Below are positions 1 through 45,323 of a stretch of DNA of 64,000 nucleotides, one piece after another. Position 1 is the stretch's first letter. Every line of letters begins with the position of its first letter. The notes below the pieces were generated by a model. That model was given only the letters and a program-made list of their open reading frames with translations, did no database searches and was not told the origin of the DNA. The DNA comes from an uncultured Planctomycetales bacterium. GTDB taxonomy: Bacteria; Omnitrophota; Gorgyraeia; Zapsychrales; Fredricksoniimonadaceae. Where the stretch lies: positions 6,398 through 70,397 of the forward strand of contig CAZFNI010000007.1 of the NCBI GenBank assembly GCA_964520655.1, read 5' to 3'. Position numbers and translations under genes: made by a program.

Positions 1-361
1 ATATTCCACCCGCATGATTATAGGTGAAGAAGAAATCCTGACGGTAGGTCAAAAACCATAAGCCTCCCAGAAAAGCAGCCGCAGGCGAGAACAGGCGCGC
101 AAGGCAAAGGAAGATCCCTAAGCCGGCGCCGATATTCAGGATGATCTGTCCCAAAAGAATGCTGGGGATGTGCACCCCGAAGAGTTTGAACATCAGCCCG
201 TAATAGTAGGGCATGAGCGGTCCATAGACCCACCAGAAATCTTTGTAGGGCATTTCTCCGCGTAAGACAGCCGCGGCCGCATACAGGTCCCGGCCATGGT
301 CCCCCTGGGCAATGAAACTTTGGAAATTATGGTATGGCCAGCAGATGATGACGCCGGCCAT
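1..361 (-). CDS. Partial CDS (N-terminal ~120 aa; continues beyond window start) of a Family-A-like polytopic membrane protein, a putative GT-C glycosyltransferase. Start codon is the complement of 359..361.
   Basis: Manual minus-strand translation: MAGVIICWPYHNFQSFIAQGDHGRDLYAAAAVLRGEMPYKDFWWVYGPLMPYYYGLMFKLFGVHIPSILLGQIILNIGAGLG... This shares the D-x-G-R-[ED]-[LV]-Y ... YKD[LF] ... G-x-L-x-P-Y-[WY]-x-x-L-[LM]-F-K-[IL]-F-G signature of the + strand paralogs at 4930, 6761, 8576 and 12740. It is absent from the ORF track because there is no in-window stop. Confidence 0.55.
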   Translation of the reverse strand, partial: MAGVIICWPYHNFQSFIAQGDHGRDLYAAAAVLRGEMPYKDFWWVYGPLMPYYYGLMFKLFGVHIPSILLGQIILNIGAGLGIFLCLARLFSPAAAFLGGLWFLTYRQDFFFTYNHAGGI

Positions 362-532
362 AAAAGTGAGAGCGCAAAAAAAGATAAAACGGATGTTAGG
401 GGAGCTAAACACGGGGACATTTTAGTGGGAAAAGCCGGGGGCGTCAAGAAAGCGCTTGCAGAAATAATATGATCCAGCACTTGTTTTATTGTTGGACAGT
501 AGTAAACTTTAATTAGCATTTATAAAAAGATT

Positions 533-4929: not shown

Positions 4930-6756
4930 GTGCAGAATAAAAGCATGTCCGTGCGCAGAAAAGATGTCCTCATTGACGGCTTTTTCCTGTCGATCTTCCT
5001 TCTAATCTTCGTATCCTTCACCTGGGGCAAATGGATCCATCCGATCGTTGATTTCGGCCGAGAGGTTTATATCCCCTGGGCGATCGATCAGGGGGCCGTT
5101 CTCTACAAAGACCTGGCATTTCTTTTCGGTGCCTTGCCTCCTTACTGGAATGCTCTGCTATTTAAGATCTTTGGCGCGTCTTTGCAGACGATCCATGTTG
5201 TGGATGTGTTGGTAGTTTTTCTTTGCGCCGCATTGATCTATCGTTTTTTCTACTGCACCATGAACCGCTTGACAGCCTTCATGGTCACCCTCTCTTTTCT
5301 TATCCTGTTTGTCATGGATTTTTATTATTATGAATCCAATATGGCGTTTTTATCGCCATTCACGCACAGTTATTTTTACGCGTTCCTTTTTGTATTAGCG
5401 GCGGTCAATATCTGGCAATGTTTTCTCATGCGTCCAAGCAGGGCCTGGATATTTTTTTTAGGGATTTGCGTCGGCGGGGTTGTTGTATCACGGCTGGAGA
5501 TCGCGGCAGCATTCTTCGTGGCATTGTTGATCGGGTTTGCCTTTTATCTCCAGCGGTTAAAACCAGGATCACGGCAAACGCTGTATTATATGGGGTGTTT
5601 TATCGGGGGATTATTGACCCCGATCGCTTTGTTCTGGGCGTATTTCTTAATGTATTTACCGCCCTTACCCGCGTTTCTTTCCATCATTGGGTATAATCCT
5701 CAATGGCGTGAGGTAGGGGATCTGTATTTTTATCAATTCTTGGGAGGGTGGAACAACTGGGAGTTAAATGTGCTCTGGATGATCCGCAATTTGCTGGTTT
5801 ATGCGGCGCTGTATGCTTCATTTCATCTGATGCTGATCGCTCGTTTAAGCTTCAGTAAGAAAGAATGGCTGAAAGGTGTTTTCTCCTTCGCGATCTTTTG
5901 TATGGTCTACGGTGGGGTCGCGTTCTATATCAGTGATATATATGCCCGGGGTGTGTTTCGAGGCGCGATCCCGGTAGTGGCGGCGTTGATCGGGATCAGC
6001 CTGTTCAATATTTGCCAGAACAAAGAATGTGCCTGCCGCGACAGGCATTTGTCAATTGTGGTTTTGGCTGTCTTCGCGTTCTTGCTGATGTTCAAGGTCC
6101 CATTACAGTTGACCTTGCAGGACTATGCGCTGATCTACGGGATGTTTGGGGTGTTGATGTTCGTTGCCGGATGTGTGTATTATCTGCCGGAAAGATATCA
6201 ACAGTATCCAGGCGGGAGGAATTGGGTTGCGTTATTAGTTTGCGCGCTGCTGGTGCTGGTCATGGTGCGCGTCGGGATCGTTTCATGGGGAGGGTTATCC
6301 AGCAAGAAAACACTGGTTGGGAGAGGGGAAAATGTGCTATGGACGTTTGATAGTCCCGCGCCTTTTGGTTCCGGCGGCAGCGTGAAAAGTTTTCTGGACT
6401 GGTCCCGGGAACACTTTGCCCCTGAAGATACGTTTGTTGTTTTGCCGGAAGGAATAATGCTCAACTTTTTGACGGGGCATCGGATCACCGGCCGGCATGT
6501 CACATATATGCCGGCGGAAGTAACGACTTTTGGTGAAGCCAGCATGCTTCAAGAACTAAAAATGTCCCCGCCGGATTATGTGGTGGTTGTCGTCAAGCAG
6601 ACAAATGCCTATGGAGGACTGGACCTGGGCGTGAATTATTTAAATGATGTGTATAGATGGGTAAAGGATAACTATACCGTAGTATGGAGGTCGGGGAGCA
6701 AGAAGAAAGATAGTTTCCTGATGTCAGTGTATCAGAAAAAAGAGCGGAAGAGGTAG
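4930..6756 (+). CDS. Family A-1: polytopic membrane protein, putative GT-C-fold glycosyltransferase (ArnT/PMT-like first-loop motif), with a ~150-aa conserved C-terminal non-membrane domain.
   Basis: 608 aa with many hydrophobic helices. GKWIHPIVDFGREVYIPWAIDQGAVLYKDLAFLFGALPPYWNALLFKIFG resembles ArnT DE-x-RYAE ... YFEKP ... YW. C-terminal motif VVLPEGIMLNFLTGHRITGRHVTYMPAE is shared with the three paralogs. Confidence 0.75.
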   Translation: MQNKSMSVRRKDVLIDGFFLSIFLLIFVSFTWGKWIHPIVDFGREVYIPWAIDQGAVLYKDLAFLFGALPPYWNALLFKIFGASLQTIHVVDVLVVFLCAALIYRFFYCTMNRLTAFMVTLSFLILFVMDFYYYESNMAFLSPFTHSYFYAFLFVLAAVNIWQCFLMRPSRAWIFFLGICVGGVVVSRLEIAAAFFVALLIGFAFYLQRLKPGSRQTLYYMGCFIGGLLTPIALFWAYFLMYLPPLPAFLSIIGYNPQWREVGDLYFYQFLGGWNNWELNVLWMIRNLLVYAALYASFHLMLIARLSFSKKEWLKGVFSFAIFCMVYGGVAFYISDIYARGVFRGAIPVVAALIGISLFNICQNKECACRDRHLSIVVLAVFAFLLMFKVPLQLTLQDYALIYGMFGVLMFVAGCVYYLPERYQQYPGGRNWVALLVCALLVLVMVRVGIVSWGGLSSKKTLVGRGENVLWTFDSPAPFGSGGSVKSFLDWSREHFAPEDTFVVLPEGIMLNFLTGHRITGRHVTYMPAEVTTFGEASMLQELKMSPPDYVVVVVKQTNAYGGLDLGVNYLNDVYRWVKDNYTVVWRSGSKKKDSFLMSVYQKKERKR

Positions 6757-6760
6757 GCCC

Positions 6761-8566
6761 ATGTCGCCGCGAAAAACAGGATTGTTGTGGGATGCCGCGG
6801 TCCTTTTGACCGTAGCCGTTGTGTTTATCATATTGACTGGCGGAAAGTGGACCCATCCGGTCAATGATTTTGGCCGGGAAGTCTACATCCCCTGGGCGAT
6901 CGATCAGGGGGCGGTCCTTTATAAAGACCTGGCTTATCTTTTTGGTGCTTTGCCGCCCTGCTTAAATGCGCTGCTGTTTAAATTCTTTGGAGCTTCCTTA
7001 CAGACGATCCAACAATTTGATCTTTTGGTCGTCGCCCTGATGACCGCGTTGATCTACCGATTTTTCTATCTTGTCTGGTGCCGGTTATCCGCATTAGCTG
7101 CTGCGGCATCATTTTTAGTTCTTTTTGCTTTTGATTATCTGCCGTTTGGTTCAAACATGTATTATTTAAGCCCCTATTCTCACAGTTATTTCTATGCTGG
7201 ATTGTTTACCCTCGCGATCTTTAACACACTGGAGAAGTATTTTAAGGATCAGCGTAAGCGCTGGCTTTTATTGACAGGGGTTCTTTTAGGTGCGGCATTG
7301 TTGTCCCGTCTGGAGTTATTTATCATCATATTCATCGCATCGATGTTCGGGCTGGTGATCGATGCCTGTGCCAAGAACATGGCGCTGCGGGAAAGGTTCC
7401 GGAACTGGATGCTGGTGTTGGCGGGGGTTACGATCGCGGTCCTGCCGTTTTTGATATATTTCTCGATGCATATGCCCGTGTCAAAAGCGTTAATGTCGAT
7501 CGTCGGGTTTAATCCACAGTGGCAGCAGGTGTCTGGCATCTATTTGTATAGAAATCTGGCCGGGCTTATCCATGTTCCGATGAACCTGCAGATGTTGGGC
7601 ATCGTTCTGGGAGCATACGCGGCGTTGTATTTAGGATTGAACGCGCTTGGTCAGGCGTTTTTGCTGCGGCGCGCGGGGAGGGATCATTTTCAGGTATTTG
7701 TTCTGGGGGCGTATTTCTTTACGGTTTATGGGGCTGTGCTGTATGCGGTCAATCACGGCTGGGCGCATGAGATCTTTCGTGGAGCGGCCGTTTGTGTGAT
7801 CTTAGCCGGTATTCTGGCGTATAGAAAAATGCGTCAAGCGCAGGATGCGGATAGCCGCACCAGGGCGCTGCTGATGCTGATGTTCTGTCTTTTTGCCGGG
7901 CTGATGCTGTTTAAAGTGCCGCTGTCGATGAAATTATTCAATTACGCGCTTTTTTACGGCATGCCCGCGGGGCTTGTCACAGTTATCGTCTGGGTCAAGG
8001 TGGTCCCGCAGATCATGCAGGAACGCTATAAGTCGGGCGCTGTCAGTCAGCTGTTTGTCTTATTCTTGCTTGTCAGCGTCGGAATCCAGGTGTTTGGCGC
8101 GTCCATCCATGGGCTTGGGGCGAGACAAAAGAAAGTCGGTCTGGGTCCCAATGCGCTGTGGGCGTTGGACAGGACTTCACCGTGGGGCGCGGGTGATGAT
8201 GTGGATCTATTCCTGAAATGGGCCAAAGAAAATCTTAAGGCCGGCGAGCGCTTCGTGGTCCTGCCGGAAGGCATCATGCTGAACTTTTTAACGGGGCATA
8301 AGATCTCCGGCAGGCATTTAACGTTTATGCCGGCGGAGATGGTCACCTTTGGCGAGAAAAGCATGTTGGGGGCATTGACGGAAGATCCGCCGGAATACAT
8401 GGTGCTTGTCCATAAAAGCAATGCTGAATACGGAGGGATCGTCCTGGGGCAGAATTATGCGCTTGAGATAGTCGGTTGGTTGAAAGAACATTATCAGCGG
8501 GTATGGATCTCCCGGGAAAAAAGGCCGGGGAATTTTTCAATTGAGGTCTATCAACGAAGATCATGA
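6761..8566 (+). CDS. Family A-2 paralog (601 aa), putative GT-C membrane glycosyltransferase.
   Basis: Same N-terminal (GKWTHPVNDFGREVYIPWAIDQGAVLYKDLAYLFGALPP) and C-terminal (VVLPEGIMLNFLTGHKISGRHLTFMPAE) motifs as A-1. Confidence 0.75.
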   Translation: MSPRKTGLLWDAAVLLTVAVVFIILTGGKWTHPVNDFGREVYIPWAIDQGAVLYKDLAYLFGALPPCLNALLFKFFGASLQTIQQFDLLVVALMTALIYRFFYLVWCRLSALAAAASFLVLFAFDYLPFGSNMYYLSPYSHSYFYAGLFTLAIFNTLEKYFKDQRKRWLLLTGVLLGAALLSRLELFIIIFIASMFGLVIDACAKNMALRERFRNWMLVLAGVTIAVLPFLIYFSMHMPVSKALMSIVGFNPQWQQVSGIYLYRNLAGLIHVPMNLQMLGIVLGAYAALYLGLNALGQAFLLRRAGRDHFQVFVLGAYFFTVYGAVLYAVNHGWAHEIFRGAAVCVILAGILAYRKMRQAQDADSRTRALLMLMFCLFAGLMLFKVPLSMKLFNYALFYGMPAGLVTVIVWVKVVPQIMQERYKSGAVSQLFVLFLLVSVGIQVFGASIHGLGARQKKVGLGPNALWALDRTSPWGAGDDVDLFLKWAKENLKAGERFVVLPEGIMLNFLTGHKISGRHLTFMPAEMVTFGEKSMLGALTEDPPEYMVLVHKSNAEYGGIVLGQNYALEIVGWLKEHYQRVWISREKRPGNFSIEVYQRRS

Positions 8567-8575: not shown

Positions 8576-10387
8576 ATGGATAAGAATAAACGGGACATAG
8601 CCCTGGATGCGGCATTTATTCTGATGGTCTTGGGTGGATTTGTGGCCGTGACCTGGGGCCGGTGGGCTCATCCGATCATTGATTACGGCCGCGAGGTGTA
8701 TGTCCCCTGGCGTATCACCGCGGGGGAGGTCTTATATAAGGACCTGGCTTATCTGTTCGGTGCTTTTCCGCCCTATTGGAATGCGCTGCTTTTTAAAGTG
8801 TTCGGCCCATCGATCGCCACCTTGACGGGATTCAACACCCTCCTGGCCCTGGCGGATGTGTTCTTGGTGTACCGGTTCCTGCTTCTGTCCGCCGATCGCT
8901 TGACCGCGCTTTTGGGCGCGGCTGGTTTTTTATTGCTGGCGGTCTGCAATCTGCACATGGCCTACAATATGTATTATTTGGCCCCCTATTCGCATAATGC
9001 CGCGTATGCGGTCTTTTTTGTTTTGTGCGCGTTAAATGTGCTGCCGTCGTTGTTGCGGATATTGGAGCACAGGGCATTCTTTTTATTGGGGCTTTTTCTC
9101 GCTGGAGCGTTGTTATCGAGGCTGGAAATATTCCTGGCCGCGGCGCTGGCGATCTTTACGGCTTTAGGGTTGTATTTTTGGAAATATTCAGTACAAAAAA
9201 ATAAAGCGTTCGCTTATATCGGCACGGCGGTGGCAGGCATTTTCTTTCCGGTATTTGTGTTCTGGGTGTATTTTGTGGCACACTTGCCGCCCTTAGAAGC
9301 ACTTTTTTCTATTATAGGCTATAACCCTCAGTGGCGAGAGGTGGCCCAAACAACACTGTATGCCAAGCAATATGCGGCGTGGCGGGAGAATGTCACGCTG
9401 ATGGCCATGGCGTTGGGAGGCAGCATGTTATTGATCGTCGGCATTGAGATATGCTGCCGGGGCATGATGTTATGGCAAAAGAGCAAAGAGCGGTTGAAAG
9501 CACTGTTGATGTGCGGTCTTTCTGTGTTGTTATATACAGGGGTTCTATATGTTTGCACGGGTGAGAATGTGTATGATGTGTTTCGGGGGCAGATCATCCT
9601 TCAGATCGTATTGGTCGTTTTTTGTTATAAAAGATTCCAGTCTTCCACTGGATTGGAAGATAATATCAGAACATTGTGCCTTTGGGTGTTGTGTGCCTGG
9701 GGGCTTTTCATGCTGGGGAAGATCCCCTTAAAATGTGTTGTCCGGGGCAGCGGCTTGATCTACGGGATCCCGGCGATGCTGACAGCGGTCGTTCTTTTCG
9801 CGTATCTTCTGCCGCAGCGGGCGCAAAGGCTTTACGGCCAGGGGCGTATTGCGGCAATAGCGGCAGCGCTGCTGCTGACATTTTTGTTCTGTCGGGTGTT
9901 GGCGTCTTCGTTGAATAACTTGTCGCTGCGTTTGAAGGCTGTCGGTCAGGGAGCCAATGCATTGCGGACCATTGATTACCCATTGCCATTCGGGCTTGGG
10001 ACCGACATTGAGAAATTCCTTTCTTGGTCGCGGGATCATTTGGGGAACAATGACACCTATGTTGTCCTGCCCGAGGGGGTCATGCTCAATTTCCTGACCC
10101 GTCACCGGATAACGGGCCAGCACATCACCTTTATGCCGGCGGAACTGGCAACGTTCACGGAAGAACGTATGCTGGCAGGGTTGAAGGATGTTCCGCCTGA
10201 TTATGTGGTCATTGTGAATAAGGATAATACGGCTTACGGGGATATGGTTTTTGGGAAGAATTACGCGCCGCGTCTTTATCAGTGGGTCATGACGCGGTAT
10301 TCGCCGGTCTGGGATTCCAGGGTTATCCCCAACCGGTATGCAGGCATAACGGTCTTCAAACGTCAGGAAATACAGGGGCATGAATAG
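8576..10387 (+). CDS. Family A-3 paralog (603 aa), putative GT-C membrane glycosyltransferase.
   Basis: GRWAHPIIDYGREVYVPW ... YKDLAYLFGAFPPYWNALLFKVFG. C-terminal VVLPEGVMLNFLTRHRITGQHITFMPAE. Confidence 0.75.
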   Translation: MDKNKRDIALDAAFILMVLGGFVAVTWGRWAHPIIDYGREVYVPWRITAGEVLYKDLAYLFGAFPPYWNALLFKVFGPSIATLTGFNTLLALADVFLVYRFLLLSADRLTALLGAAGFLLLAVCNLHMAYNMYYLAPYSHNAAYAVFFVLCALNVLPSLLRILEHRAFFLLGLFLAGALLSRLEIFLAAALAIFTALGLYFWKYSVQKNKAFAYIGTAVAGIFFPVFVFWVYFVAHLPPLEALFSIIGYNPQWREVAQTTLYAKQYAAWRENVTLMAMALGGSMLLIVGIEICCRGMMLWQKSKERLKALLMCGLSVLLYTGVLYVCTGENVYDVFRGQIILQIVLVVFCYKRFQSSTGLEDNIRTLCLWVLCAWGLFMLGKIPLKCVVRGSGLIYGIPAMLTAVVLFAYLLPQRAQRLYGQGRIAAIAAALLLTFLFCRVLASSLNNLSLRLKAVGQGANALRTIDYPLPFGLGTDIEKFLSWSRDHLGNNDTYVVLPEGVMLNFLTRHRITGQHITFMPAELATFTEERMLAGLKDVPPDYVVIVNKDNTAYGDMVFGKNYAPRLYQWVMTRYSPVWDSRVIPNRYAGITVFKRQEIQGHE

Positions 10388-12743
10388 GAATTTAGTCACC
10401 GTCGGTGTCATTTCGTTTTCGGCCATCTTGTTCCAGATATGCGTCACGCGCATTCTGGCGGTGACCCTGTGGTATCATTTTGCTTTTCTGGTGATCTCGC
10501 TTTCGATGCTGGGGATGACGGCAGCCGCGATCGCCTGTTTTGTTTTTTGGCCGCGTGTCATAGAAACACAAAGCCGGCGGTATTTTATTATTTTTGCAGC
10601 CCTGTTCGCCTTGCTTGCGCCATTATCCGTTGCTGTTCATTTAAATATCAATTTTCAGGAAGTGGCGTTCAACACGGCCGGATTTTATGCGATCGCGATG
10701 CTCCAGCTGGTGTTTTTGGCGGCGGCGTTCTTCGCCGCAGGGATGGCGTTAAATATCATTTTGTTCAAAGAACAGGAACGGATCGGATTTGTCTATTTCT
10801 GTGATCTGATCGGCGCCGCGGCGGCAAGCCTTCTGGTCATGGCGCTGTTATATTGGGTCAGCCCTATCGCTGTTGTGTTTCTCATTTCATTTTTGTCCTT
10901 ATGGGCAGCCTATGTGCAGGCATCGCATCAGGGCTTACGCCTGGCGCTGCTTTTATCAGCGGGAGTGATGCTGGTATTATTCATCAACAATGACGCGTGG
11001 CATATCTTTAAGATCAGGGCCGTGAAAAGTTATGGGGAGAAAGCGTTCCAGGTGGAGGACAAACCTCTTTTGTTCGAGAAATGGTCGCCGTTCGCGCGTA
11101 CGACGGTGTACAGCCCGACCCGCCATGACAGCGGGACATTATCCATTGAGAATAATTCCGGCGCACCGGCGGCAATGTTCAAATATGACCCGATGCTTCC
11201 GCCAACCCAGCTGAGGACCAGGCTTTACGGTCTTCAGGAAATGGCTTTTGTCCTCAAGAAGAGCGATGAAGCCTTGATCATCGGCTCAGGCGGAGGGAGG
11301 AATTTGCTGGCAGCGTTGCTCTCGGGTCAGGGCCATATCACGGCGGTTGAGGTCAATCCGGTGACTGCGGAGATCGTTACAAAGGATTTTTCGGATTATA
11401 TCGGCCGCATCTTTGAGGATTCCCGCGTTACTTTTCATGTGCAGGAGGGGAGGAATTTCATTGCCCGTACCCAACAGTTGTACGATGTGATCAATATCTC
11501 CATGGTTGAGAGCTGGGGGAATCAGGCCGCGGCCAGCAATTCGTATATTTTTACCGAGAACACCTTGTACACCAGAGAAGCGGTCTGGGATTATGTGCGT
11601 CATTTAAACCCGCAGGGGATACTGAGCATCACCCGGTATGATGATTTTGATGAAGGCTTGCGTTTAGTGAACACGATGATCGACACGCTGCAGGAGAGAG
11701 GGGAAAAAGACCTTAAGGACCAGTTCGTCGTTGTGTTGGGCTACAAGTATCGGGGATCGGTGGGGCTAGCCAATGTCATGTACAAACGCGGCGGATTCAC
11801 CAGGGAAGATGTGGCCAGGATCAGGGATTTTACATCCCGTAACGGTTTTAAGATCATTTACGCGCCGTTCTTGCCGGAGGCAGCAATGAGCGCGCTTCCC
11901 CGGTCGGAATTTTACCGCAAGCTTATCCTCGGGAAAGACAGGAGGGATGATCTGGTGGCGCGGTATCCCCGGATCATCAGCCCATCCACGGACGACAAAC
12001 CATTTTTTTTCTACATGGACCGATTTAAGGATTCATTTGTGTTCAATGCCAATGAACATGCGGCCCGAAGACGCGCTATCCCGATATTGTATGGATTGTG
12101 TGCGGGGGTAGCGGTGCTTAGCCTGATCATGGTCTTTCTGCCGTTGTTAGTTTACCGCCGTACACGTTTAAGCACGCTGTTGCAATGCCGGGTGAATTTG
12201 CTTTATTTTGCAGCGCTGGGAACGGGGTTTATGTTCATTGAGTTATCCCTGATACAGCGACTGACTGTTTTTCTGGGGCATCCCATTTACGCCTTGATCG
12301 TGGTGTTGACCGCCTTGCTGTTAAGCAGCGCTATGGGGAGCTTCTTCTCAGGAAGGATCAAGCCTCTAATGAAAGAGAAGGTGCTTAAGGTTGTGCTGCT
12401 GGCGATCGCCCTCTGTGGCGTTCTTGTGGGGGGAATTATGTTCGATCACCTGGCGCGCTGGATGTATTTACAGCAGCCGCTGCGTGTCATCGTTGCTGTC
12501 GCGACCATCGTTCCTTTGGGGGCTATGCTGGGGATGTGTTTCCCGCTGGGTGTTCATTTGCTGCAGGAGAAGGACAGGCAGCTGATCGTATGGGCGTGGG
12601 GTATCAACGGGATATTTTCTGTCTTAGGATCGGTGCTGGCCATGGTGCTGGCACTGCATATGGGATTTAAAGCCGTGTTCTTGATCGGAGCGGCATGTTA
12701 TTGCGGGGCATGGTTGGCGGTCAAACGCATGGGGAATCAATGA
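10380..12743 (+). CDS. Spermidine-synthase-like (aminopropyl/methyl-transferase fold) domain flanked by N- and C-terminal multi-TM domains (787 aa).
   Basis: The central segment IIGSGGGRNLLAALLSGQGHITAVEVNPVTAEIV ... DVINISMVESWGNQAAASNSYIFTENTLYTREAV matches the spermine/spermidine synthase fold. Hydrophobic N- and C-terminal regions are consistent with the known fused spermidine-synthase-like membrane proteins. Confidence 0.65.
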   Translation: MNRNLVTVGVISFSAILFQICVTRILAVTLWYHFAFLVISLSMLGMTAAAIACFVFWPRVIETQSRRYFIIFAALFALLAPLSVAVHLNINFQEVAFNTAGFYAIAMLQLVFLAAAFFAAGMALNIILFKEQERIGFVYFCDLIGAAAASLLVMALLYWVSPIAVVFLISFLSLWAAYVQASHQGLRLALLLSAGVMLVLFINNDAWHIFKIRAVKSYGEKAFQVEDKPLLFEKWSPFARTTVYSPTRHDSGTLSIENNSGAPAAMFKYDPMLPPTQLRTRLYGLQEMAFVLKKSDEALIIGSGGGRNLLAALLSGQGHITAVEVNPVTAEIVTKDFSDYIGRIFEDSRVTFHVQEGRNFIARTQQLYDVINISMVESWGNQAAASNSYIFTENTLYTREAVWDYVRHLNPQGILSITRYDDFDEGLRLVNTMIDTLQERGEKDLKDQFVVVLGYKYRGSVGLANVMYKRGGFTREDVARIRDFTSRNGFKIIYAPFLPEAAMSALPRSEFYRKLILGKDRRDDLVARYPRIISPSTDDKPFFFYMDRFKDSFVFNANEHAARRRAIPILYGLCAGVAVLSLIMVFLPLLVYRRTRLSTLLQCRVNLLYFAALGTGFMFIELSLIQRLTVFLGHPIYALIVVLTALLLSSAMGSFFSGRIKPLMKEKVLKVVLLAIALCGVLVGGIMFDHLARWMYLQQPLRVIVAVATIVPLGAMLGMCFPLGVHLLQEKDRQLIVWAWGINGIFSVLGSVLAMVLALHMGFKAVFLIGAACYCGAWLAVKRMGNQ

Positions 12744-14566
12744 GATTAAACATGGCAAAGATCGACAGACGAGTTGTGCAAGATGTCATTGTGCTGATGA
12801 TCGTCATGATGTATTTCATCGCAAGGACATGGGGGAAATGGGCCCACCCGATCACGGATTTCGGACGGGAATTGTATATCCCTTGGCGCTTAAGCGAAGG
12901 GCAAATATTATACAGGGACATTGCCTATTTGTTTGGTGCATTTCCCCCCTATTGGAACGCGCTGATGTTCAAGCTGTTCTCCCCGTCGCTGGCCATGTTG
13001 ATAACGATCGACCTTGTGGCGGCTTGTTTATACACAGCATTGATCTACCGCTTTTTATATGTCACAACCAACCGGTCAACAGCATTCATGGGAAGTTTGG
13101 GTTTCATGATGGTGTTCGTCTGTAATTTTATGGGGTATAACATGTATTATCTAACCCCCTATTCTCACAGCAATTTTTATGCCGTTCTCTTTTCTTTGGC
13201 CGCAATGAACCTGTTCCATCTTCTTTCGCAACACTTTAAAAAAAGGATGGTATTCGCGATCGGCCTGTTATTAGGCGGGGTGCTCTTATCACGTCTAGAG
13301 ATATTCCTGACGATCATTATCCCTGTTATTGTTGGTATAGCGATGTTGGTGGATCGACGCGGCAGCAAGGCAGTGATCGCACGGAGTTATGCTGTATTTC
13401 TTTTAGGGCTTGTGATCCCCGTTATCTGTGCATGGGGTTATTTCTTGCAGTATTTCCCAGCGGCACAGGCGCTGCAGAACATCGTGGGATATAATCCCCA
13501 TTGGCAGAAAATATCGGGTGTCTATTTGTACGCAAAACAATATCTCGGCTGGGAAAGGAATGCCTCTCTAACGGCAAAGGCAATAGCCGCGGGCTTTATA
13601 TTTTATGGAGCCATTGATCTGTTGTGCCGGGGTATTCGCGGGGGTCTTGACAATAAAGGGGCATATCGGTTTGCGGGGATGATCTTGCCGGGTTTTTGTA
13701 TGTATGCCTTGATCGTTTATCTGTGTGTGACGCCTTATGTGTACGATTCTTTTCGGGGAGCGGCCATGGCGGCTGTCGTGCTGGCTGCAGCTCTTTTCCG
13801 TCGACTGAAAGGTGTTCCGTCCTTGCCGCAGAGTATTCCAGGTCTGATACCGCTGCTGGTGTGTTGTTTCTGGGCAGTCTTGATGTTGTTCAAGGTGCCG
13901 CTGATGATCACCTTCCGGGGATACGGGCTGGTCTATGGGCTGCCGGCATTTCTGATGGGGGTGGTCCTTTTTGTGTATTTTGTCCCACAGCAGATGCAGC
14001 GGAAATATGGTCAGGGACAGTTGTCGCGGCGACTGGTATCCGCGTTGCTGCTGTTGATATGCGTGATGATATATTCTTCTTCATTCAAAAATTTGTCATC
14101 GAGGAACAAGGCTGTTGGTTCTGGGAATAATATTGTTGTTTATCTGGACAAGAAGTCCTCTTACGGACTGGCGGAAGATATTGAGCGTTTTCTCCTCTGG
14201 GCCAAGGATCATTTGGGCCCCAGGGACACGTATGTTGTTCTTCCTGAGGGAGTAATGCTCAATTTTTTCACCAGGCATGCGATCACCGGTCCGCATGTCA
14301 GCTTTATGCCCGCGGAAATGGCCACGTATGGGCAAGAAGAACTGTTATTGTCGTTAGAACGTGATCCGCCGGACTATGTGCTCATTGTCCACAAAGATAA
14401 TCGCGTGTATCCCGGGATGATATTGGGTAGAAATTATGCGGTAAGCATTGTAGACTGGGTCAAAAGAAATTACCGTTCTGTCTGGGATTCGCGCGAGAAT
14501 AAAAAACGTTTTGTCGGGATCGAAGTGTTTCAACGCGAGGGGATAAATGATCAAGATCTTTATTAG
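12740..14566 (+). CDS. Family A-4 paralog, putative GT-C membrane glycosyltransferase. The ORF track starts at 12695; the ATG at 12740, overlapping the upstream stop as ATGA, is preferred.
   Basis: GKWAHPITDFGRELYIPWRLSEGQILYRDIAYLFGAFPPYWNALMFKLF. C-terminal VVLPEGVMLNFFTRHAITGPHVSFMPAE. The distance from the start to the GKW motif matches the paralogs. Confidence 0.7.
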   Translation: MRLNMAKIDRRVVQDVIVLMIVMMYFIARTWGKWAHPITDFGRELYIPWRLSEGQILYRDIAYLFGAFPPYWNALMFKLFSPSLAMLITIDLVAACLYTALIYRFLYVTTNRSTAFMGSLGFMMVFVCNFMGYNMYYLTPYSHSNFYAVLFSLAAMNLFHLLSQHFKKRMVFAIGLLLGGVLLSRLEIFLTIIIPVIVGIAMLVDRRGSKAVIARSYAVFLLGLVIPVICAWGYFLQYFPAAQALQNIVGYNPHWQKISGVYLYAKQYLGWERNASLTAKAIAAGFIFYGAIDLLCRGIRGGLDNKGAYRFAGMILPGFCMYALIVYLCVTPYVYDSFRGAAMAAVVLAAALFRRLKGVPSLPQSIPGLIPLLVCCFWAVLMLFKVPLMITFRGYGLVYGLPAFLMGVVLFVYFVPQQMQRKYGQGQLSRRLVSALLLLICVMIYSSSFKNLSSRNKAVGSGNNIVVYLDKKSSYGLAEDIERFLLWAKDHLGPRDTYVVLPEGVMLNFFTRHAITGPHVSFMPAEMATYGQEELLLSLERDPPDYVLIVHKDNRVYPGMILGRNYAVSIVDWVKRNYRSVWDSRENKKRFVGIEVFQREGINDQDLY

Positions 14567-16529
14567 GAGCATGTTTATCGCGTTGATCGCCGCATGTTTG
14601 ATCGGCATGTCCGACCTGATATTCATTTCTGTTTCCCCTAAAGCGTTTATCAGTTTCAGGAATATCACTGTTCTGGCCGGAGTTCCGGTCCTGGCGATGA
14701 ACTGGCTGCTGGTCTTTTTCGCAACGTTCATCCTTGTGTTCGTATGTTCTTGGCTGGGAGGCTATGTTGTCGCCGGGATCTTTTCTTTATGGACGATCTT
14801 TTATTTGATCAGTTGGGGGACATATTTAGTCGTTGGTGAGTTTCTTGGTTTCGAGGGGATCCGGTTTGTTTGGTATAACCTCAATGATATCCTCTGGATG
14901 ATGGGACAGATCTCTGCCTGGTATTGGGTGGCTTTGACCGTCCTGGTACTAACGCCGGTCGCTGGTTTTCTTTTGACCAACAGGTTTAGTCATTATTTCA
15001 AGAAGATCATCACCGCTCTTGAAGTGAGGCAAAGAGTAGTTGCTGGGATCGGTGTTCTGGTTTTATGCACGTTGATGGCGATCGCGTTTATTCTTTTTGC
15101 GTCGTTGACCCCCAAACAGAAAGCTGACTTAAGATTACGTGTTTCTCCCCAGGCGACATTGTTCTGGGACCGTCCGCAAAAAGAGATCCTTTTGGGACGC
15201 GCGCATGATCAAGAGCACTTAAGAACACATTACTCCCAGGTTATTGGATGGGAGGATTATCAGAAGATGCAGGTCAAGACCGTCAAGCCTGTTCCTGTGA
15301 TCGTCATAGTCATTGAGTCCATGTGCTGGGACGTTTTGAACAATGCGCAGGTGATGCCCAACACGTACGCTTTAAAACAGGATGGAGTGTATTTACGCGC
15401 GTATACGACCAGCAATCAATCCGATTATGCGTGGCCCGCGATATTCTCGTCACAATATCCCCTGCGGACCAGATATCATTATTATTATCCCAGAGAAAGC
15501 CGCTTCCCGCGCGTTACCATCTATGACGTATTAAAGCAACAGGGATTCGACACGGCTATCTATTCTGCCCAGAATGAGACCTGGGGGGGAATGTTCAATT
15601 ATTTGAATACCGGGTCTTTAGACATGTTCTATTATTCCGATGCCTCTCATGGGGAGGATTATATGTCCCACGAAGATTCCGGGTTCGCTGCCTATACGAA
15701 AAAGTTCAGATCCCCGGGGAAGATCGATGATGGAGTGGTGGTCGATGAGGCCATATCGTGGATCAAAGGAAGGCATCAGGATAAGTTCTTTCTTGGTCTT
15801 AATTTTCAGCGTTCGCATTTCCCCTATACCTGGCCCGACTCATTCCATCCCCCTGATCCGGGAGTAAAGCCAAGCGGCTGGGGATATTCACGCACTCTGG
15901 TCAAGGGTGTAAAGGCCAGGTATTTCAGTGCGTTGCGTTATACGGATGAACAGATCGGACGTTTTATTAATTTCTTAAAAGAGCAGGGGATCTATGAAAA
16001 GAGCATTATTGTATTGATGGGCGACCACGGAGAGGCCTTTTATGAACATGCTTCTCCGATCCATGGGAATGAACTCTTCAATGAAACTGCTTTGACCGGG
16101 TTGTTGATCAAGGGATCAAACGAGCGCATAACCGTCAAAAATTATAAGAATCCGGAACTTCTGGATGTTGCTCCGACGCTATCTTCAATGTTGGGATTGA
16201 CGATACATCCGGCTTTTCAGGGGGAATCACTAGTGGCCCCGTCTTCTTTTTCAAAACCAGTCTTCATCACGGTGCAGTCGGCTATCGCTAAACAGGATGC
16301 GATCGTCGCGGGCGGGTGGAAATTGATCCGGGATCTGCGTAATAACAGGACATCTCTTTTTGATCTTCGACGTGATCCTGGGGAAAGCAAGAATGTTTAT
16401 CAATCCAATCAGGTTCAAGGGCTGAAACTGTTGCTCCAGTTGCTGTATTGGCGCAAGAAGCAGTTAGAGTATTATTCAACACCGGACATGGCAAAAAAAT
16501 ATTATGCCCCCAAGTACTCGTCCCCATAA
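14547..16529 (+). CDS. Membrane-anchored sulfatase-family enzyme (alkaline-phosphatase superfamily), LtaS / phosphoglycerol- or phosphoethanolamine-transferase-like.
   Basis: About 5 N-terminal TM helices followed by a soluble domain with VIVIVIESMCWD and the signature LMGDHGEAF. The architecture matches LtaS/MdoB/EptA-type transferases. Confidence 0.65.
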   Translation: MIKIFIRSMFIALIAACLIGMSDLIFISVSPKAFISFRNITVLAGVPVLAMNWLLVFFATFILVFVCSWLGGYVVAGIFSLWTIFYLISWGTYLVVGEFLGFEGIRFVWYNLNDILWMMGQISAWYWVALTVLVLTPVAGFLLTNRFSHYFKKIITALEVRQRVVAGIGVLVLCTLMAIAFILFASLTPKQKADLRLRVSPQATLFWDRPQKEILLGRAHDQEHLRTHYSQVIGWEDYQKMQVKTVKPVPVIVIVIESMCWDVLNNAQVMPNTYALKQDGVYLRAYTTSNQSDYAWPAIFSSQYPLRTRYHYYYPRESRFPRVTIYDVLKQQGFDTAIYSAQNETWGGMFNYLNTGSLDMFYYSDASHGEDYMSHEDSGFAAYTKKFRSPGKIDDGVVVDEAISWIKGRHQDKFFLGLNFQRSHFPYTWPDSFHPPDPGVKPSGWGYSRTLVKGVKARYFSALRYTDEQIGRFINFLKEQGIYEKSIIVLMGDHGEAFYEHASPIHGNELFNETALTGLLIKGSNERITVKNYKNPELLDVAPTLSSMLGLTIHPAFQGESLVAPSSFSKPVFITVQSAIAKQDAIVAGGWKLIRDLRNNRTSLFDLRRDPGESKNVYQSNQVQGLKLLLQLLYWRKKQLEYYSTPDMAKKYYAPKYSSP

Positions 16530-27752: not shown

Positions 27753-29065
27753 GTTGTGACGTTCTAGTCATTGGTTCCGGCCCCGGCGGCGCTATGACAG
27801 CCATGCTGTTGGCCCAGGCGGGACGGGATGTGATCCTTTTGGAAGAGGGGCAGCATATCCCCATCGACCAGGTTCCTGCGTATTCCCTGGATGAGATGGA
27901 CCTTAAATACCGCCACGGCGGGTTAACGGTCAGCGCGGGAGATCCCAAGGTCACTTACATAGAAGGCCGCTGCGTCGGAGGGGCAAGCGAGATCAATGCC
28001 GGGCTTTATCATCGCCCGCTGCCAAAAACATTGGATGCCTGGGGGGCGGAGCACCGTTTAAAGGGATTTTCTTCCCAGCTGATGGAGCCGTTCTTTTTAG
28101 CCAATGAAGACATGATCAAGGTGGTGCCGTTTCAGGGTGAATTGTCGATCGCTTCGCGTTTGATCCGCGACGGGGCTCAAAAGCTGGGCTGGCAGTCGGG
28201 GGAGGTGCCCAGGTTATGGGATTACGCGAAGGGATGTAAGTGCTCGATGAGCGAAGCGGTGATCCCGCAATTTATCAAAGCCAAAGGACGGCTGATCACG
28301 CAGGCCAGGGCGGGACGTTTGCATGTGTCCAATAGAAAAGCCTTTCAGGTCAATACCCGTTTATTGAATATCCGTTTTAACCATGTGTTTATCTGCGGCG
28401 GCGCGATACAAACGCCGCTCTTGCTGCGGCGAAGCGGCATCAAGAAGAATATCGGCAATAATTTACGTATGCATCCGGCGGTGCGGGCGGTCGTTGAATT
28501 TGACCGCGATATCAATGATCCAAGTGAGGGCGTGCCGGTCTATCAGGTCAGTGAATTCAAACCGGAGATCTCATTAGGGGGTTCTTACAGCGGGCTGCCG
28601 CATTTAGGGCTGTGGCTCTCCGGGCGAAGCGACCTAAAAGCGCATTTAAAGGCCTGGAAGCGACACGCGATCTTTTACGCCCTGATCATGGCTTCTACGC
28701 CTGGGAAGGTGCGTGCTATTCCTTTTGTCGACGAGCCGATTGTCAGCCTGCCCATGGTCAAGGCTGATTGGGAGCTGATGGAGCAGGGGCTTTCGCGTCT
28801 GGAGGAATTATTCAAGGCGGCAGGGGCGGTGCATATCCACCGCAGCATCAAGCCCGAACTATCAACGATACATTTGTTCTGTTCCTGTCCCATGGGGGAG
28901 GACTCACCGACCGCTGCGGTCGATTCTTACGGCCGGCTGCACGGGTATGACAATATTTATTTGAACGACGCCAGCATTCTACCGGCAACGCCCGGGGTCA
29001 ATCCCCAGGCAACCATCATGGCGCTGGCCCGCCGCAACGTGGAGCATTTTATAAAATACTCATGA
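27734..29065 (+). CDS. GMC-family FAD-dependent oxidoreductase.
   Basis: N-terminal CDVLVIGSGPGGAMTAMLLAQAGRDVILLEEG (FAD-binding GxGxxG). C-terminal YLNDASILPATPGVNPQATIMALA is the characteristic GMC C-terminal motif. Confidence 0.75.
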   Translation: MPKDRLSCDVLVIGSGPGGAMTAMLLAQAGRDVILLEEGQHIPIDQVPAYSLDEMDLKYRHGGLTVSAGDPKVTYIEGRCVGGASEINAGLYHRPLPKTLDAWGAEHRLKGFSSQLMEPFFLANEDMIKVVPFQGELSIASRLIRDGAQKLGWQSGEVPRLWDYAKGCKCSMSEAVIPQFIKAKGRLITQARAGRLHVSNRKAFQVNTRLLNIRFNHVFICGGAIQTPLLLRRSGIKKNIGNNLRMHPAVRAVVEFDRDINDPSEGVPVYQVSEFKPEISLGGSYSGLPHLGLWLSGRSDLKAHLKAWKRHAIFYALIMASTPGKVRAIPFVDEPIVSLPMVKADWELMEQGLSRLEELFKAAGAVHIHRSIKPELSTIHLFCSCPMGEDSPTAAVDSYGRLHGYDNIYLNDASILPATPGVNPQATIMALARRNVEHFIKYS

Positions 29066-31116
29066 GCCGATTATCTTTGAGCCCCGCGTACCGCAATGTC
29101 CTGATGCTGGCCGTTCTAAGCTTCCTGCAGGCGCTGCAGCTGCTGATCTGGGCGGCTGCTGCAAGTTCCCTGATCCCCTATGCCAGGACCGATTTTGTCA
29201 CAAAGATCTTTCCGGTCTATTTGCCCGAGGTAAGGCCTGAGCGGGAGATGCTCTTGTTCCGTTTGTTTGTGGTGATGGCCGTCGCTATCATGGCGGCGTG
29301 GATCGTCCGGCACAAGGATGAGGTCGACTCCCGAGAACTTCGACGGGAATATGGCGCTTATACGGTCTTTACGGCAACGGTCATTGTCATACAGCTGATC
29401 TTTATTTTTAAACTTATTGTTTTTGGGGGCCCCCTGTGGGCCAGAGTGATGATGTGGCTTTGCATGGTCGGAGCTTTGTTGGCGCATGTGTTCTGGCCGG
29501 AACTGCGGAAAATATTATCTTCCTGGCAGGGGAAGATCATATCCAGCGATGATGTTGGATCCCCGCATTTGTGGGATGCTTCATTTATCCTTTTGCTGTT
29601 TGTTCTGCTATATCCAAATAATCTAGATAATGTACTGGGCCGCATATTTGTTCATGATCAGTTCTATCATTTAGACAGCATGCTCATGATGCCGGGCTTC
29701 GCGCATCTCAAAGGTCTGCTGTTAAACCGGGATATCACCAGCGAATACAGCGCCGGGTTGCCTGTAATGCTGTCCAATGTGCTGAATTTCTTCCATGGGT
29801 TTGATTATCCGGGGGCGGTAAGGCTGTTGATCATGTTGAACCTGGTTTATTACGCGGCGTTGTACCTGTTCATTGCCCGCTGGCTTAATTCCAGGCCTTT
29901 GGGGGTGTTGGGCACATTGCTTGCGGTCAAATGGCAAATGTTCCATTGGGGGGTGGCGCCATTGGTCTGGCAATTCCCCAGTGCCACCGCTTTAAGGCAT
30001 TTGCCGGACATTGTGTTTTATTTTACTTTCTGGCAGTATTTAAGAACACTTAAGACGCGCTGGTTGATCATTGCGGTGATCTCTGTCGGTGTCACGTTGT
30101 TCTGGATGATGGATGTCGGGGTCTATTTGCTGGCAGCGCTTTGCGCGGGCATGCTTTTATTCAATTGGCGGCAGGCTTTCGCAGCGGCGGCTCTGGCGCT
30201 TGGCACGGCTTTTGTGTTGCTGTGGGCTGGGCAGCCCCAGGCGGTTGTGTCGGCGGATTATTGGAAGAACCAGTTTGAATTCGCCTCATTGTTCCTCAAC
30301 GGGTGGGGGGCATTACCGATGACGGAAGGGTTAAAGGATAAGCAGTTCTTTGCTTTTATCATTGGATTTGTTATTCCCGTCGGTTATGCCGCCAGTTTAG
30401 TCTACAGCGCCCAACGTTTCTGGGCAGATAAAAACCGAAAAGACCATTTGTTCGTCGTTGTGTTGTGCCTGTACGGCCTTGGCCTGTACCATTATTTTAT
30501 CCATCGTTCTGGTGTCACCAGTTATTACGCGGTGTGTGTTCCGCTTGTTTTGCTTGTGTGTTTTTGGGGGCAGCAGCTGTTGTCCCGGCTGCCTGCCGAT
30601 AAGCGGCGGCTGGCGGCGGTCGTGGCCGCAAGCCTGATGCTGCCGATCTTGGCTACGAGCTATCTGTTCACGTATTATCCCAATATCCTTAATCTTGCCG
30701 GCAATGACTGGAAGATCGAGGCCAAATATTATCGCGAACACTTTGACCTGAAAAAAGATGCGCAAATGATCGCGTCATTGTCCGCTCCTGGCGAGAGGGT
30801 GGCCATCATCAGTAGTTTTGAGACCAGGATCCTGATGCAGGCCGACCGTCCGCCGCTGTTTTACTATTCACCCATGGTCGAATCTTCCTTGATGGATGAT
30901 CCGCGATCACGGTTGACCTATCTACACACTCACAAACGGCTGCGGGAGACGATCGCGCAGATCGAGGAACGCAGGCCGTCGTATGTTTTTATCGAGGCAA
31001 AGATGCTCAATGTGCAGGGCCAGGAAGCATTGTCAGGTCTGTTAAGCGCGGTGATGAACAATTACACACCGTTTAAACAAGGGGTTTACTTGATCGCCTT
31101 TAAGAGGACGAAATGA
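29062..31116 (+). CDS. Family C-1: uncharacterised polytopic membrane protein (684 aa) with a conserved C-terminal soluble domain.
   Basis: Shares with five paralogs the blocks FVHDQFYHLD, YGLGLYHYF, YYPNILN and a C-terminal SSFETRILMQADRPPLFYY ... YVFIE. No match to any family I recognise. Confidence 0.7.
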   Translation: MSRLSLSPAYRNVLMLAVLSFLQALQLLIWAAAASSLIPYARTDFVTKIFPVYLPEVRPEREMLLFRLFVVMAVAIMAAWIVRHKDEVDSRELRREYGAYTVFTATVIVIQLIFIFKLIVFGGPLWARVMMWLCMVGALLAHVFWPELRKILSSWQGKIISSDDVGSPHLWDASFILLLFVLLYPNNLDNVLGRIFVHDQFYHLDSMLMMPGFAHLKGLLLNRDITSEYSAGLPVMLSNVLNFFHGFDYPGAVRLLIMLNLVYYAALYLFIARWLNSRPLGVLGTLLAVKWQMFHWGVAPLVWQFPSATALRHLPDIVFYFTFWQYLRTLKTRWLIIAVISVGVTLFWMMDVGVYLLAALCAGMLLFNWRQAFAAAALALGTAFVLLWAGQPQAVVSADYWKNQFEFASLFLNGWGALPMTEGLKDKQFFAFIIGFVIPVGYAASLVYSAQRFWADKNRKDHLFVVVLCLYGLGLYHYFIHRSGVTSYYAVCVPLVLLVCFWGQQLLSRLPADKRRLAAVVAASLMLPILATSYLFTYYPNILNLAGNDWKIEAKYYREHFDLKKDAQMIASLSAPGERVAIISSFETRILMQADRPPLFYYSPMVESSLMDDPRSRLTYLHTHKRLRETIAQIEERRPSYVFIEAKMLNVQGQEALSGLLSAVMNNYTPFKQGVYLIAFKRTK

Positions 31117-44860: not shown

Positions 44861-45323
44861 ATCTTTTGATGTCTTTGATCCGGTCTTTACCGGTTTATTA
44901 GCTGCCGCGGCGATCCTGTGCGCGATGGAAATGCTCATTATCGCCGGTGTTGTTTTGTTCTATATCCCCTTTACGCCTGACCCATCCCTGCAGGATATAT
45001 TCTTCCATTACCGCAAAGGATATGTTCCCGAGCAGGAATTATTATTGTACGGCGTTGGGATCGCGATGGCGGTGGTCTTCTTTGTCGGCGCTGCGATCGT
45101 TTTTGCGCGGCGCGTTTCGGATGTTTTGTTTCAAAGGTCATTGATACGTTATGCGGTGGTGCATACGGCCGTTGTGATTTCGATGACGGCATGTGTTTTT
45201 AAATTGATCGTCACACCGTCGGATGGCATCGCGTGGGCATGTCTTTATACAATGTTGGGCGTTTCTTTGGGACTTAACATATTTTGGAGCGAGATCGATC
45301 AATGGTTTGGGCGGACCTTTTAG
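44850..45323 (+). CDS. Family C-4, N-terminal fragment (157 aa, 4 TM), ending just after the family's FW-x-EI motif.
   Basis: ...NIFWSEIDQWFGRTF* aligns with FWPELRK, FFPELNN and IFWAEIVRFW of the paralogs. Either a split gene or an independent short ORF. Confidence 0.5.
   Translation: MKNKSFDVFDPVFTGLLAAAAILCAMEMLIIAGVVLFYIPFTPDPSLQDIFFHYRKGYVPEQELLLYGVGIAMAVVFFVGAAIVFARRVSDVLFQRSLIRYAVVHTAVVISMTACVFKLIVTPSDGIAWACLYTMLGVSLGLNIFWSEIDQWFGRTF

Follow-up and report, generated by a model that had tools for sequence, protein, structure and literature searches.

Family A genes at the locus

We analysed a 64,000-nucleotide stretch (hereafter the window) of contig CAZFNI010000007.1, from a genome assembly of an uncultured bacterium placed in the Omnitrophota (GCA_964520655.1). 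Four large open reading frames (ORFs) on the plus strand of the window encode paralogous membrane proteins, which we call family A and number as copies 1 to 4; residue numbers throughout are those of copy 1. A sequence-only reading of this DNA had noticed a conserved motif at the start of the first gene and proposed that the proteins are probably glycosyltransferases of the GT-C class, with a first periplasmic loop comparable to that of ArnT and the PMT enzymes. The family A genes, and the parts of copy 1 to which we refer, are the following.

4930..6756, plus strand: family A copy 1, 608 amino acids (aa) from a GTG codon; predicted GT-C core of 13 transmembrane (TM) helices followed by a periplasmic C-terminal domain
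5020..5181, plus strand: first periplasmic loop (EL1; copy 1 residues 31-84), where conservation within the protein is highest, as judged by regular-expression scan, alignment and model
5491..5499, plus strand: R188-L-E190, at the predicted periplasmic turn between TM5 and TM6 (EL3), with a helix break at 187/189 in the model; position of motif M4 of the GT-C/PMT clan
5959..5961, plus strand: R344, in a short predicted periplasmic loop (EL5, residues 336-345) before the TM10 helix (346-363); position of clan motif M7
6301..6756, plus strand: C-terminal periplasmic alpha/beta domain, residues 458-608, family-specific; modelled separately with pLDDT 91.6
6761..8566, plus strand: family A copy 2, 601 aa; 42.5% identity to copy 1; E 8.5e-166 with the family hidden Markov model (HMM)
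8576..10387, plus strand: family A copy 3, 603 aa; found by BLAST, alignment and family HMM
12695..14566, plus strand: family A copy 4, 623 aa as listed; found by BLAST, alignment and family HMM
1..418, minus strand: N-terminal 139 residues of a divergent paralogue, by translation; runs off the window

In an all-against-all BLAST comparison of the large ORFs of the window, copies 1-4 are 37-44% identical to each other over their whole length. Copy 1 probably begins at the ATG at 4945, giving 603 aa, because its 96%-identical orthologue (P0001) has 603 aa; likewise, the true start of copy 4 is probably the ATG at 12740, since its orthologue (P0003) has 608 aa.

The interval 4930-5160, in which the loop motif was first noticed, does contain it. 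The interval corresponds to residues 1-77 of copy 1, at the 5' end of the ORF, and only the last two residues of the motif, F78 and K79, fall outside. A six-frame regular-expression scan of the window with W-x-H-P-[IVL]-x-D-[FY]-G-R-E-[VL]-Y returned exactly four matches, one in each of copies 1-4, and the patterns LY[KR]D, VLPEG[IV], MPAE and PP[DE]Y[VM] each matched once per copy. The pattern had been ascribed to five copies, and this holds for the four ORFs on the plus strand; the fifth, at 1-418 on the minus strand, is truncated and divergent, lacks G-[KR]-W-x-H-P, keeps just D-H-G-R-D-L-Y of the loop motif and has its C-terminus outside the window. Translation of this fragment reads ...QGDHGRDLY...PYKDF...GPLMPYYYGLMFK, also given as ...QGDHGRDLY...PYKDF...GPLMPYYYGLMFKLFG; it carries GDHGRDLY...PYKDF...MFKLFG. 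Two elements said to occur in every copy are altered in copy 2, which reads PPCLNA in place of PPYWNA and H-L in place of the C-terminal H-[IV]. The original observation was thus largely correct, with four copies rather than five and small errors in the pattern, and its interpretation is supported by the results given below.

A near-identical contig of assembly GCA_041910255.1 (locus L001), whose gene order is the same as that of the window, encodes the full-length orthologue of the minus-strand fragment, a protein of 518 aa, and next to it a paralogue of 543 aa. Both the N-terminal and the C-terminal parts of the 518-aa protein are matched by the family HMM (E 2.6e-29), and it also matches Pfam PMT_2 (E 3.7e-5); the 543-aa paralogue is matched by the family HMM in its N-terminal region and its C-terminal domain (E 6e-22). 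The window contains four canonical family A copies and a fragment of one divergent paralogue.

Conservation of the first periplasmic loop

Mean pairwise identity among copies 1-4 is 40% overall, 72.5% in residues 31-84, 64% in the core of the C-terminal domain (residues 500-552) and just 28% in TM5-7 and TM8-13. The conserved residues of EL1 are H37, D41-F-G43-R44-E45-x-Y47, W50, G55, L58-Y59-x-D61 and G67...N74...F78...G82, with the codon for D41 of copy 1 at 5050-5052, and the structural model, in which EL1 spans 32-84, places two helices within the loop, at 44-53 and 69-81.

Conservation across the family was assessed with an alignment of 177 members from outside the window. Three residues, D41, G43 and G178, are invariant (177/177). 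At least 95% conservation was found in the N-terminal half for W32, W35, Y47, W50, G55, L58, D61, G67, G82, N92, P143, Y144 and E190, and in the C-terminal half for G273, Y399, P420, P506, G508, N512, P548, G562, G567, W577 and Y582. R44, E45, Y47, D61, K/R188, E190, K389 and the PEG, N and PPD residues of the C-terminal domain are near-invariant family-wide. Judged from these alignments, the conservation of the motif reflects selection and not chance.

The family consensus for EL1 is W-x-x-W-P-D37-x-x-x-D41-F-G-R-E-L-Y...W...G...L-Y-x-D61...G-P...N-A...F-G. Position 37 (codon 5038-5040 in copy 1) is His in copies 1-4 and Asp in 89% of the 177 members; the 19 exceptions, with H, N, G or E, are dispersed over the family, while D41 never varies. 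The clade represented in the window also departs from the consensus at several other conserved sites (P68A, S70P, N139Y, H150Y, G151A, K188R and D468N). His37 and these clade-specific changes suggest, from the alignment, an altered active-site or specificity pocket in the window clade.

Predicted fold and membrane topology

Copy 1 was modelled with AlphaFold2 on an alignment of 39 sequences, with a pLDDT of 92.2 and a pTM of 0.93. The model contains 13 long helices that would span the membrane; residues 241-276 form a loop that includes a helix, and an alpha/beta domain begins at residue 459. When the model was compared with PDB structures by Foldseek, the top 20 matches were all GT-C proteins, namely STT3, ArnT, AglB, PglB, AftA and ALG9 (probability 1.00, E 1.7e-6 to 9.5e-4), with query-normalised TM-scores of 0.39-0.53. 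The eight best matches were STT3 subunits of several oligosaccharyltransferase (OST) complexes (best E 1.7e-6, query-normalised TM-score 0.53), ArnT (5F15/5EZM) was in the top 10 (E 1.3e-5), and AglB and PglB were in the top 17. Pmt1, Pmt2 and Pmt4 gave partial matches lower in the list. Matches to transporters of the major facilitator superfamily (MFS) in the same search (E 0.01-0.1) were discarded as noise, with TM-scores of 0.09-0.14 and probabilities of 0.14-0.38.

The helix boundaries of the model were then applied to the 177-member alignment for a positive-inside analysis. The N-terminal tail and the six even-numbered loops, which would be cytoplasmic, have 15.4 Lys and Arg residues over 68 positions (0.23 per residue), as compared with 11.4 over 135 positions (0.08 per residue) in the odd-numbered, periplasmic loops. 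All putative cytoplasmic loops are net positive, and among the periplasmic loops just the two that contain R344 and K389, both conserved, are basic. Thirteen TM helices with this distribution of charge indicate a topology with the N-terminus inside and the C-terminus outside; loop 1, as had been proposed, and the C-terminal domain are then both on the periplasmic side. This predicted arrangement is the canonical topology of the GT-C(A) class and resembles that of Burkholderia cenocepacia ArnT, whose 13 TM helices are likewise accompanied by a large C-terminal part in the periplasm (PMC5377068).

Sequence relationships to the GT-C class

PF13231 (PMT_2, a member of the GT-C clan) was matched by 26 of 39 family members at E <= 0.01, with a best E of 5.9e-9. 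The match spans TM2-TM6 in these relatives, and EL1 and the C-terminal domain lie outside it. Some relatives are named "glycosyltransferase family 39 protein" by NCBI, or "ArnT-like", in their source records. A local hhalign alignment of the family A profile with an ArnT profile was weak but positive (E 6.8e-4, probability 27%, 467 columns), and one with a cluster of TMTC-like TPR-GT-C proteins from related loci gave E 2.1e-4 and a probability of 46%. The ArnT profile was of very low diversity, as a search seeded with Escherichia coli ArnT returned just proteins at least 76% identical to it, and this probably accounts for the modest hhalign probabilities.

In the ArnT alignment the second half of loop 1 is paired with high posterior confidence, the family reading ...YF-x-G-P...Y-x-N-A...FG opposite ...YFEKP...YW...FG of ArnT. 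The register suggested by the sequence-only reading, in which D-x-G-R-E was equated with ArnT D-E-x-R-Y, was not recovered: the profile alignments pair position 37 with the ArnT Asp and DFGRE with ArnT E-I-S-R-E, with low confidence in that region. PMT_2 matches in relatives, the fold matches and the weak ArnT alignment together support the assignment to GT-C. The sequence-only reading had named two outcomes that would speak against it, a lack of GT-C homology and a cytoplasmic motif, and neither came true.

Candidate active-site residues

Enzymes of the GT-C/PMT clan share several functional positions: an acidic pair early in EL1 (M1; D55/E56 in ArnT and D77/E78 in Pmt1), a basic residue in EL1 (K85 in ArnT), a K-E pair in EL3 between TM5 and TM6 that contacts the donor phosphate or metal (M4), and an Arg preceding TM10 that binds the donor phosphate (M7) (PMC7801869). 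By alignment and model, conserved residues of family A appear to fall at the positions of M1, M4 and M7. The M1-type feature is a long EL1 with helices and a conserved Asp soon after TM1 (D41 in 177/177, D37 in 89%).

At the M4 position, the family consensus is T-K-x-E (K/R in 99% and E in 98% of the 177-member alignment), and hhalign paired [KR]188-x-E190 with ...MTKG... of ArnT. R188-L-E190 of copy 1 is a candidate phosphate or metal ligand. R344 is invariant in copies 1-4 and occurs in 78% of the D37 subset of the family and in 18 of the 19 other members; its putative equivalence to the M7 Arg is one of position in the predicted topology. K389, also conserved, lies in the next periplasmic loop (EL6). 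We favour D41 over position 37 as the essential carboxylate, with low confidence as for all individual residues, because position 37 varies and is His in copies 1-4 while D41 never varies among the 177 members.

The C-terminal domain

Family-wide motifs of the C-terminal domain are V-L-P-E-G-x-M-L-N-x-L, M-P-x-E, P-P-D and ...W....Y, which in copy 1 include VVLPEG-x-MLN-x-L and PPDY. The domain gave no Pfam match when 39 family members were scanned, no match to PDB sequences in a profile search and no similarity to the C-terminus of ArnT (hhalign probability 1.4%). A fold search with the isolated domain found no significant match, and none to any OST periplasmic domain; its best, non-significant neighbours were Rossmann folds of the class I methyltransferase type (E 3e-3 to 3e-2, query-normalised TM-score 0.26-0.46). 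The earlier statement that the domain has no counterpart in ArnT or PMT therefore holds for both sequence and fold, yet ArnT does have a periplasmic C-terminal domain at the same place.

A word-indexed homologue search with the profile of the domain returned 18 short proteins (86-277 aa), nearly all on contigs shorter than 6 kb, which are probably truncated gene calls of family A; among these 18 matches the domain was found in no other protein context. By analogy with other GT-C enzymes we infer that the domain may bind the acceptor, and it is a likely determinant of specificity.

Family size and recurrent neighbours

When 1.84 billion cluster representatives were searched with a family profile, 9990 matched at E <= 1e-3 and 3136 at E <= 1e-30, so that at the latter threshold the family comprises at least 3136 clusters at 50% identity. 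Among the best 150 profile matches, 147 were single matches over nearly the whole profile, in proteins of 571-699 aa. Loci were collected with the peptide pattern [FY]GRE[LVA]Y[VIT][PA]W in one genome per GTDB species, which yielded 282 confirmed loci. The 80 that were examined all come from metagenome-assembled genomes, mostly of Planctomycetota and Desulfobacterota/"Deltaproteobacteria" (Smithella, Syntrophaceae), with fewer from Omnitrophota, Myxococcota, Acidobacteriota and Gemmatimonadota. With 85 family A ORFs in 77 loci, one gene per locus is the rule, and its surroundings are quite different.

The commonest neighbour is a GT2 glycosyltransferase of about 230-250 aa, found within 10 kb in 19 of 77 loci and directly adjoining family A on the same strand in six (L006, L009, L013, L024, L042 and L078). 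The NCBIfam models best matched by these neighbour GT2 proteins are AglJ, Dol-P-hexose transferase, PpgS, ArnC and PgfS, all under the equivalog cut-offs. A recurrent neighbour of this DPM1/ArnC/PgfS-like kind suggests a polyprenyl-phosphate-sugar donor. Membrane proteins with a sulfatase fold resembling LtaS and EptA adjoin family A in eight loci (nine by tblastn with the window gene), TPR-GT-C proteins recur in 11 loci and radical SAM enzymes in nine. A polytopic membrane protein of about 500-750 aa ("cluster 2") also stands beside family A in at least seven genomes (L038, L054, L075, L018, L040, L042 and L013). Its longer versions end in a C-terminal TPR region; its membrane part had no Pfam match, and hhalign gave no link to GT-C profiles.

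The neighbourhood fits the scheme of multi-component extracytoplasmic glycosylation, GT2 lipid-sugar synthase to flippase to GT-C (PMC8035078, PMC11127046). A flippase gene was not identified, and none of the findings points to a particular acceptor. The features of the window that bear on this neighbourhood are listed here.

14547..16529, plus strand: membrane-anchored sulfatase/LtaS/EptA-like protein directly downstream of copy 4; Pfam Sulfatase E 1.1e-32
29062..50445, plus strand: island with the five family C genes (29062-31116, 33454-35904, 39895-42372, 45284-47068 and 48298-50445), interleaved with YfhO-like genes
50876..51598, minus strand: GT2, 240 aa; Pfam Glycos_transf_2 E 1.4e-21; by BLAST a member of the GT2 cluster found beside family A in other genomes

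The best NCBIfam matches of the GT2 at 50876-51598 are PgfS, PpgS, AglJ and ArnC, all below the curated cut-offs, and by sequence it is a candidate polyprenyl-phosphate-sugar synthase that may supply the donor.

The surrounding island

The five family C genes had no Pfam match and are remote relatives of family A (hhalign probability 91.8%, E 7.5e-7, 472 columns including the C-terminal domain). YfhO-like genes, identified by Pfam matches to the YfhO C-terminus, start at 17507, 20713, 31113, 35905 and 42359 on the plus strand. In all, some 50 kb (family A at 4930-14566 and the region 17507-50445) are dense with large polytopic membrane proteins of three paralogue sets, with about 15 GT-C-like genes.

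Between copies 3 and 4 lies a gene for a 787-aa protein (10380-12743, plus strand) with a spermidine-synthase-like domain of the class I methyltransferase fold at residues 293-415 (Pfam E 4.3e-5); both the gene and its position are kept in L001. Accessory ORFs stand amid the membrane proteins at 16504-17505, 19868-20719, 23082-24662, 25460-27340, 27734-29065 and 38397-39902. The accessory enzymes are an SGNH/GDSL-like esterase, an FkbM methyltransferase, an FAD amine-oxidase-like protein, an asparagine synthase that resembles the XrtA/PEP-CTERM amidotransferase (E 7e-163, below the cut-off), a GMC oxidoreductase and a methyltransferase with a weak GT2 region. These interleaved enzymes are consistent with a glycan-modification island.

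Immediately upstream of family A, at 533-2980 and 3166-4887 on the plus strand, are two genes for paralogous secreted Cys-rich proteins, neither of which had a Pfam match even at E 1. The product of 3166-4887 has a thrombospondin-type-1-like motif (WSGWGAC...CGFGTETRTC) and seven CGVCGG repeats of the form DCNGVCNGGAVVDxCGVCGG, which we take to resemble the Cys-rich region of ADAMTS proteins. The Cys-rich proteins were considered and rejected as a conserved partner of family A, as the proteins and their motifs occur only in the window and a close relative and in none of the 80 related loci.

Comparison with known systems

ArnT and family A both have 13 TM helices with the N-terminus inside and the C-terminus outside. 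In both, the first periplasmic loop is long and contains two helices, and their aromatic-F-x-x-P...Y-W...FG stretches align at high posterior confidence; both also have a basic residue where TM5 turns into TM6 and a periplasmic C-terminal domain of about the same size. A polyprenyl-monophosphate-sugar donor made by a GT2 enzyme, as proposed here for family A, would be a further point in common. The loop motifs that define ArnT are RYA and YFEKP (PMC5377068). Family A lacks RYA and has G-R-E-[LV]-Y and [AY]-F-x-G-[AP] instead, and in place of the D-E pair of ArnT it has P-D37...D41-F-G-R-E, or H37 in the window copies. E. coli ArnT carries PF02366 and PF13231, whereas family A carries just PF13231. 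Family A likewise differs from the PMT enzymes (GT39) in lacking their D-E pair, and scans of 39 family members found neither a MIR domain nor PF02366.

Several multi-component systems (CsbB/GtcA/YfhO, PgfS/PgfM1/PgfM2, ArnC/ArnEF/ArnT and GtrA/B/C) are comparable in that a GT2 of the PgfS/PpgS/AglJ/ArnC kind recurs near family A and YfhO-like GT-C genes share its island, but the GT-C component here belongs to a different, uncharacterised family. By its sequence, family A may work like ArnT, PMT or YfhO-type GT-C enzymes while falling outside ArnT, PMT and STT3 on the motifs and profiles of each.

Weighing the alternatives

We consider it quite likely that family A consists of glycosyltransferases integral to the inner membrane, that these belong to the GT-C(A) class together with ArnT, PMT, STT3/PglB and AftA, and that they work by the mechanism proposed in the next section. 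Our confidence in this assignment is good for the fold and class, moderate for the type of donor and low for individual residues. Several observations weigh against it. Pfam and NCBIfam scans of copies 1-4 gave nothing significant, the best Pfam match being PMT_2 in copy 2 (residues 68-233, E 0.04, 14.6 bits as compared with a gathering score of 26.1). Searches of PDB sequences with profiles of 4, 39 and 28 sequences returned nothing even at E 10, and neither did those with the single sequences of the 518-aa paralogue and P0030. The hhalign probabilities for ArnT and for the TMTC-like cluster are low, and both alignments pair the canonical catalytic Asp with position 37 and not with D41, at low local confidence and at a site where the window copies carry His. 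Family A also lacks the E-K of the ArnT YFEKP motif, the GT2 association is limited to about a quarter of loci, and the NCBIfam matches of the neighbour GT2 proteins are below their cut-offs.

The fold matches could be read differently. Since the eight best are STT3 subunits, with AglB and PglB close behind, and since OSTs (STT3 and its GT66 relatives PglB and AglB, or PglL/TfpW) share the 13-TM core and a C-terminal periplasmic alpha/beta domain, an oligosaccharide pre-assembled on a polyprenyl-diphosphate carrier might be transferred en bloc by family A, with proteins as acceptors and the two secreted Cys-rich repeat proteins encoded just upstream as possible examples. GT66 enzymes are the best overall fold match and also have an Arg before TM10. 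We nevertheless regard this as improbable, as a WWDYG-type motif is missing from the list of conserved residues, the conserved residues of the C-terminal domain are P-E-G...N...P-P-D, and that domain in isolation has no fold match among OST periplasmic domains. The STT3 Pfam model had no match in 39 family members. The recurrent genomic partner is a small DPM1/ArnC-like GT2, typical for donors that carry a monosaccharide on a monophosphate, and the Cys-rich proteins are absent from all 80 related loci.

The same upstream genes, with the Pfam link to PMT_2 and the GT39 names given to some relatives by NCBI, invite comparison with protein O- (or C-) mannosyltransferases of the PMT, TMTC and DPY19 type, for which the TSR-like and ADAMTS-like Cys-rich proteins (533-2980 and 3166-4887) would be the substrates. 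Both genes lie immediately upstream on the same strand, and 3166-4887 encodes a TSR-like W-x-x-W...CG-x-G...R-x-C motif in addition to its seven CGVCGG repeats. That explanation is unlikely: family A has no MIR domain, TPR domain or D-E motif, the Cys-rich proteins themselves are without Pfam matches, their association with family A is confined to the window and its close relative, and most genomes carry just one family A gene, with quite other neighbours.

It is very unlikely that these are non-catalytic proteins of the GT-C fold, such as PIG-U of the GPI transamidase, or transporters. PIG-U chains (E about 0.02-0.05) and MFS transporters appeared in the fold search, and the window copies have His at position 37 in place of the usual Asp of the family; however, the MFS matches are noise, position 37 is replaced by H, N, G or E across the family while D41 is retained, and invariant or near-invariant charged residues occupy periplasmic loops at the catalytic positions of GT-C enzymes. 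True orthology to ArnT, with addition of 4-amino-4-deoxy-L-arabinose to lipid A, is effectively refuted by motif and context tests despite the ArnT fold matches, the alignment of EL1 with that of ArnT and the occurrence of the family mainly in diderm phyla, as the NCBIfam ArnT models had no match in copies 1-4, RYA and YFEKP are missing, the C-terminal domain is unrelated to that of ArnT and no arn genes (arnA/B/C/D-like) were present among the window genes scanned.

Proposed mechanism and implications

For family A as GT-C(A) glycosyltransferases, we propose a mechanism of which the type of donor, the roles of individual residues and that of the C-terminal domain are the inferred parts. A GT2 resembling DPM1, ArnC and PgfS would make the lipid-linked sugar, most likely a monosaccharide on a polyprenyl monophosphate, at the cytoplasmic side of the membrane, and the product would be flipped. 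The flipped lipid-linked sugar would bind in the membrane domain, with the active site on the periplasmic face, where the basic residues [KR]188 (EL3), R344 (EL5) and K389 (EL6) may hold the donor phosphate. EL1 (residues 31-84) would cover the site and supply the essential carboxylate, for which D41 is the best candidate, and R44, E45, Y47, D61 and E190 could serve as sugar or metal ligands. The sugar would be passed to an acceptor held between EL1, EL2 and EL4 and the C-terminal alpha/beta domain (P506-E-G...N512...P548-D). A glycan, a glycolipid or a protein of the diderm cell envelope is the probable acceptor. Within a single large envelope-glycosylation island, the four copies in tandem, two more divergent paralogues upstream and the five remote relatives of family C probably have different acceptor or donor specificities.

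It is possible, and we suggest it only tentatively, that family A, family C and the 518-aa and 543-aa paralogues form a new GT-C family at the level of CAZy, that the periplasmic, cofactor-less Rossmann-like C-terminal domain is a new module for acceptor recognition, that the island of about 15 GT-C-like genes builds a complex and hitherto undescribed envelope glycoconjugate of an uncultivated lineage, and that His37 replaces Asp37 in the active-site loop of the window subclade. The description that fits family A best is that of a large, separate branch of the PMT_2-like GT-C clan, as yet uncharacterised, in which both the EL1 signature and the C-terminal domain are distinctive.

The steps of envelope and protein glycosylation that take place outside the cytoplasm are the work of GT-C enzymes, which among other things modify lipid A, decorate teichoic acids, make arabinan and catalyse N-, O- and C-glycosylation. 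The enzyme class is already known and automated pipelines label some relatives GT39, so the contribution made here is one of annotation and not a new kind of system. Nearly all members of family A come from uncultivated Planctomycetota, Desulfobacterota, Omnitrophota, Myxococcota and Acidobacteriota; neither Pfam nor NCBIfam has a model of its own for the family, and 'hypothetical' is the usual annotation. The predicted fold, topology and candidate active-site residues provide a usable annotation for these proteins and a list of residues for mutagenesis.

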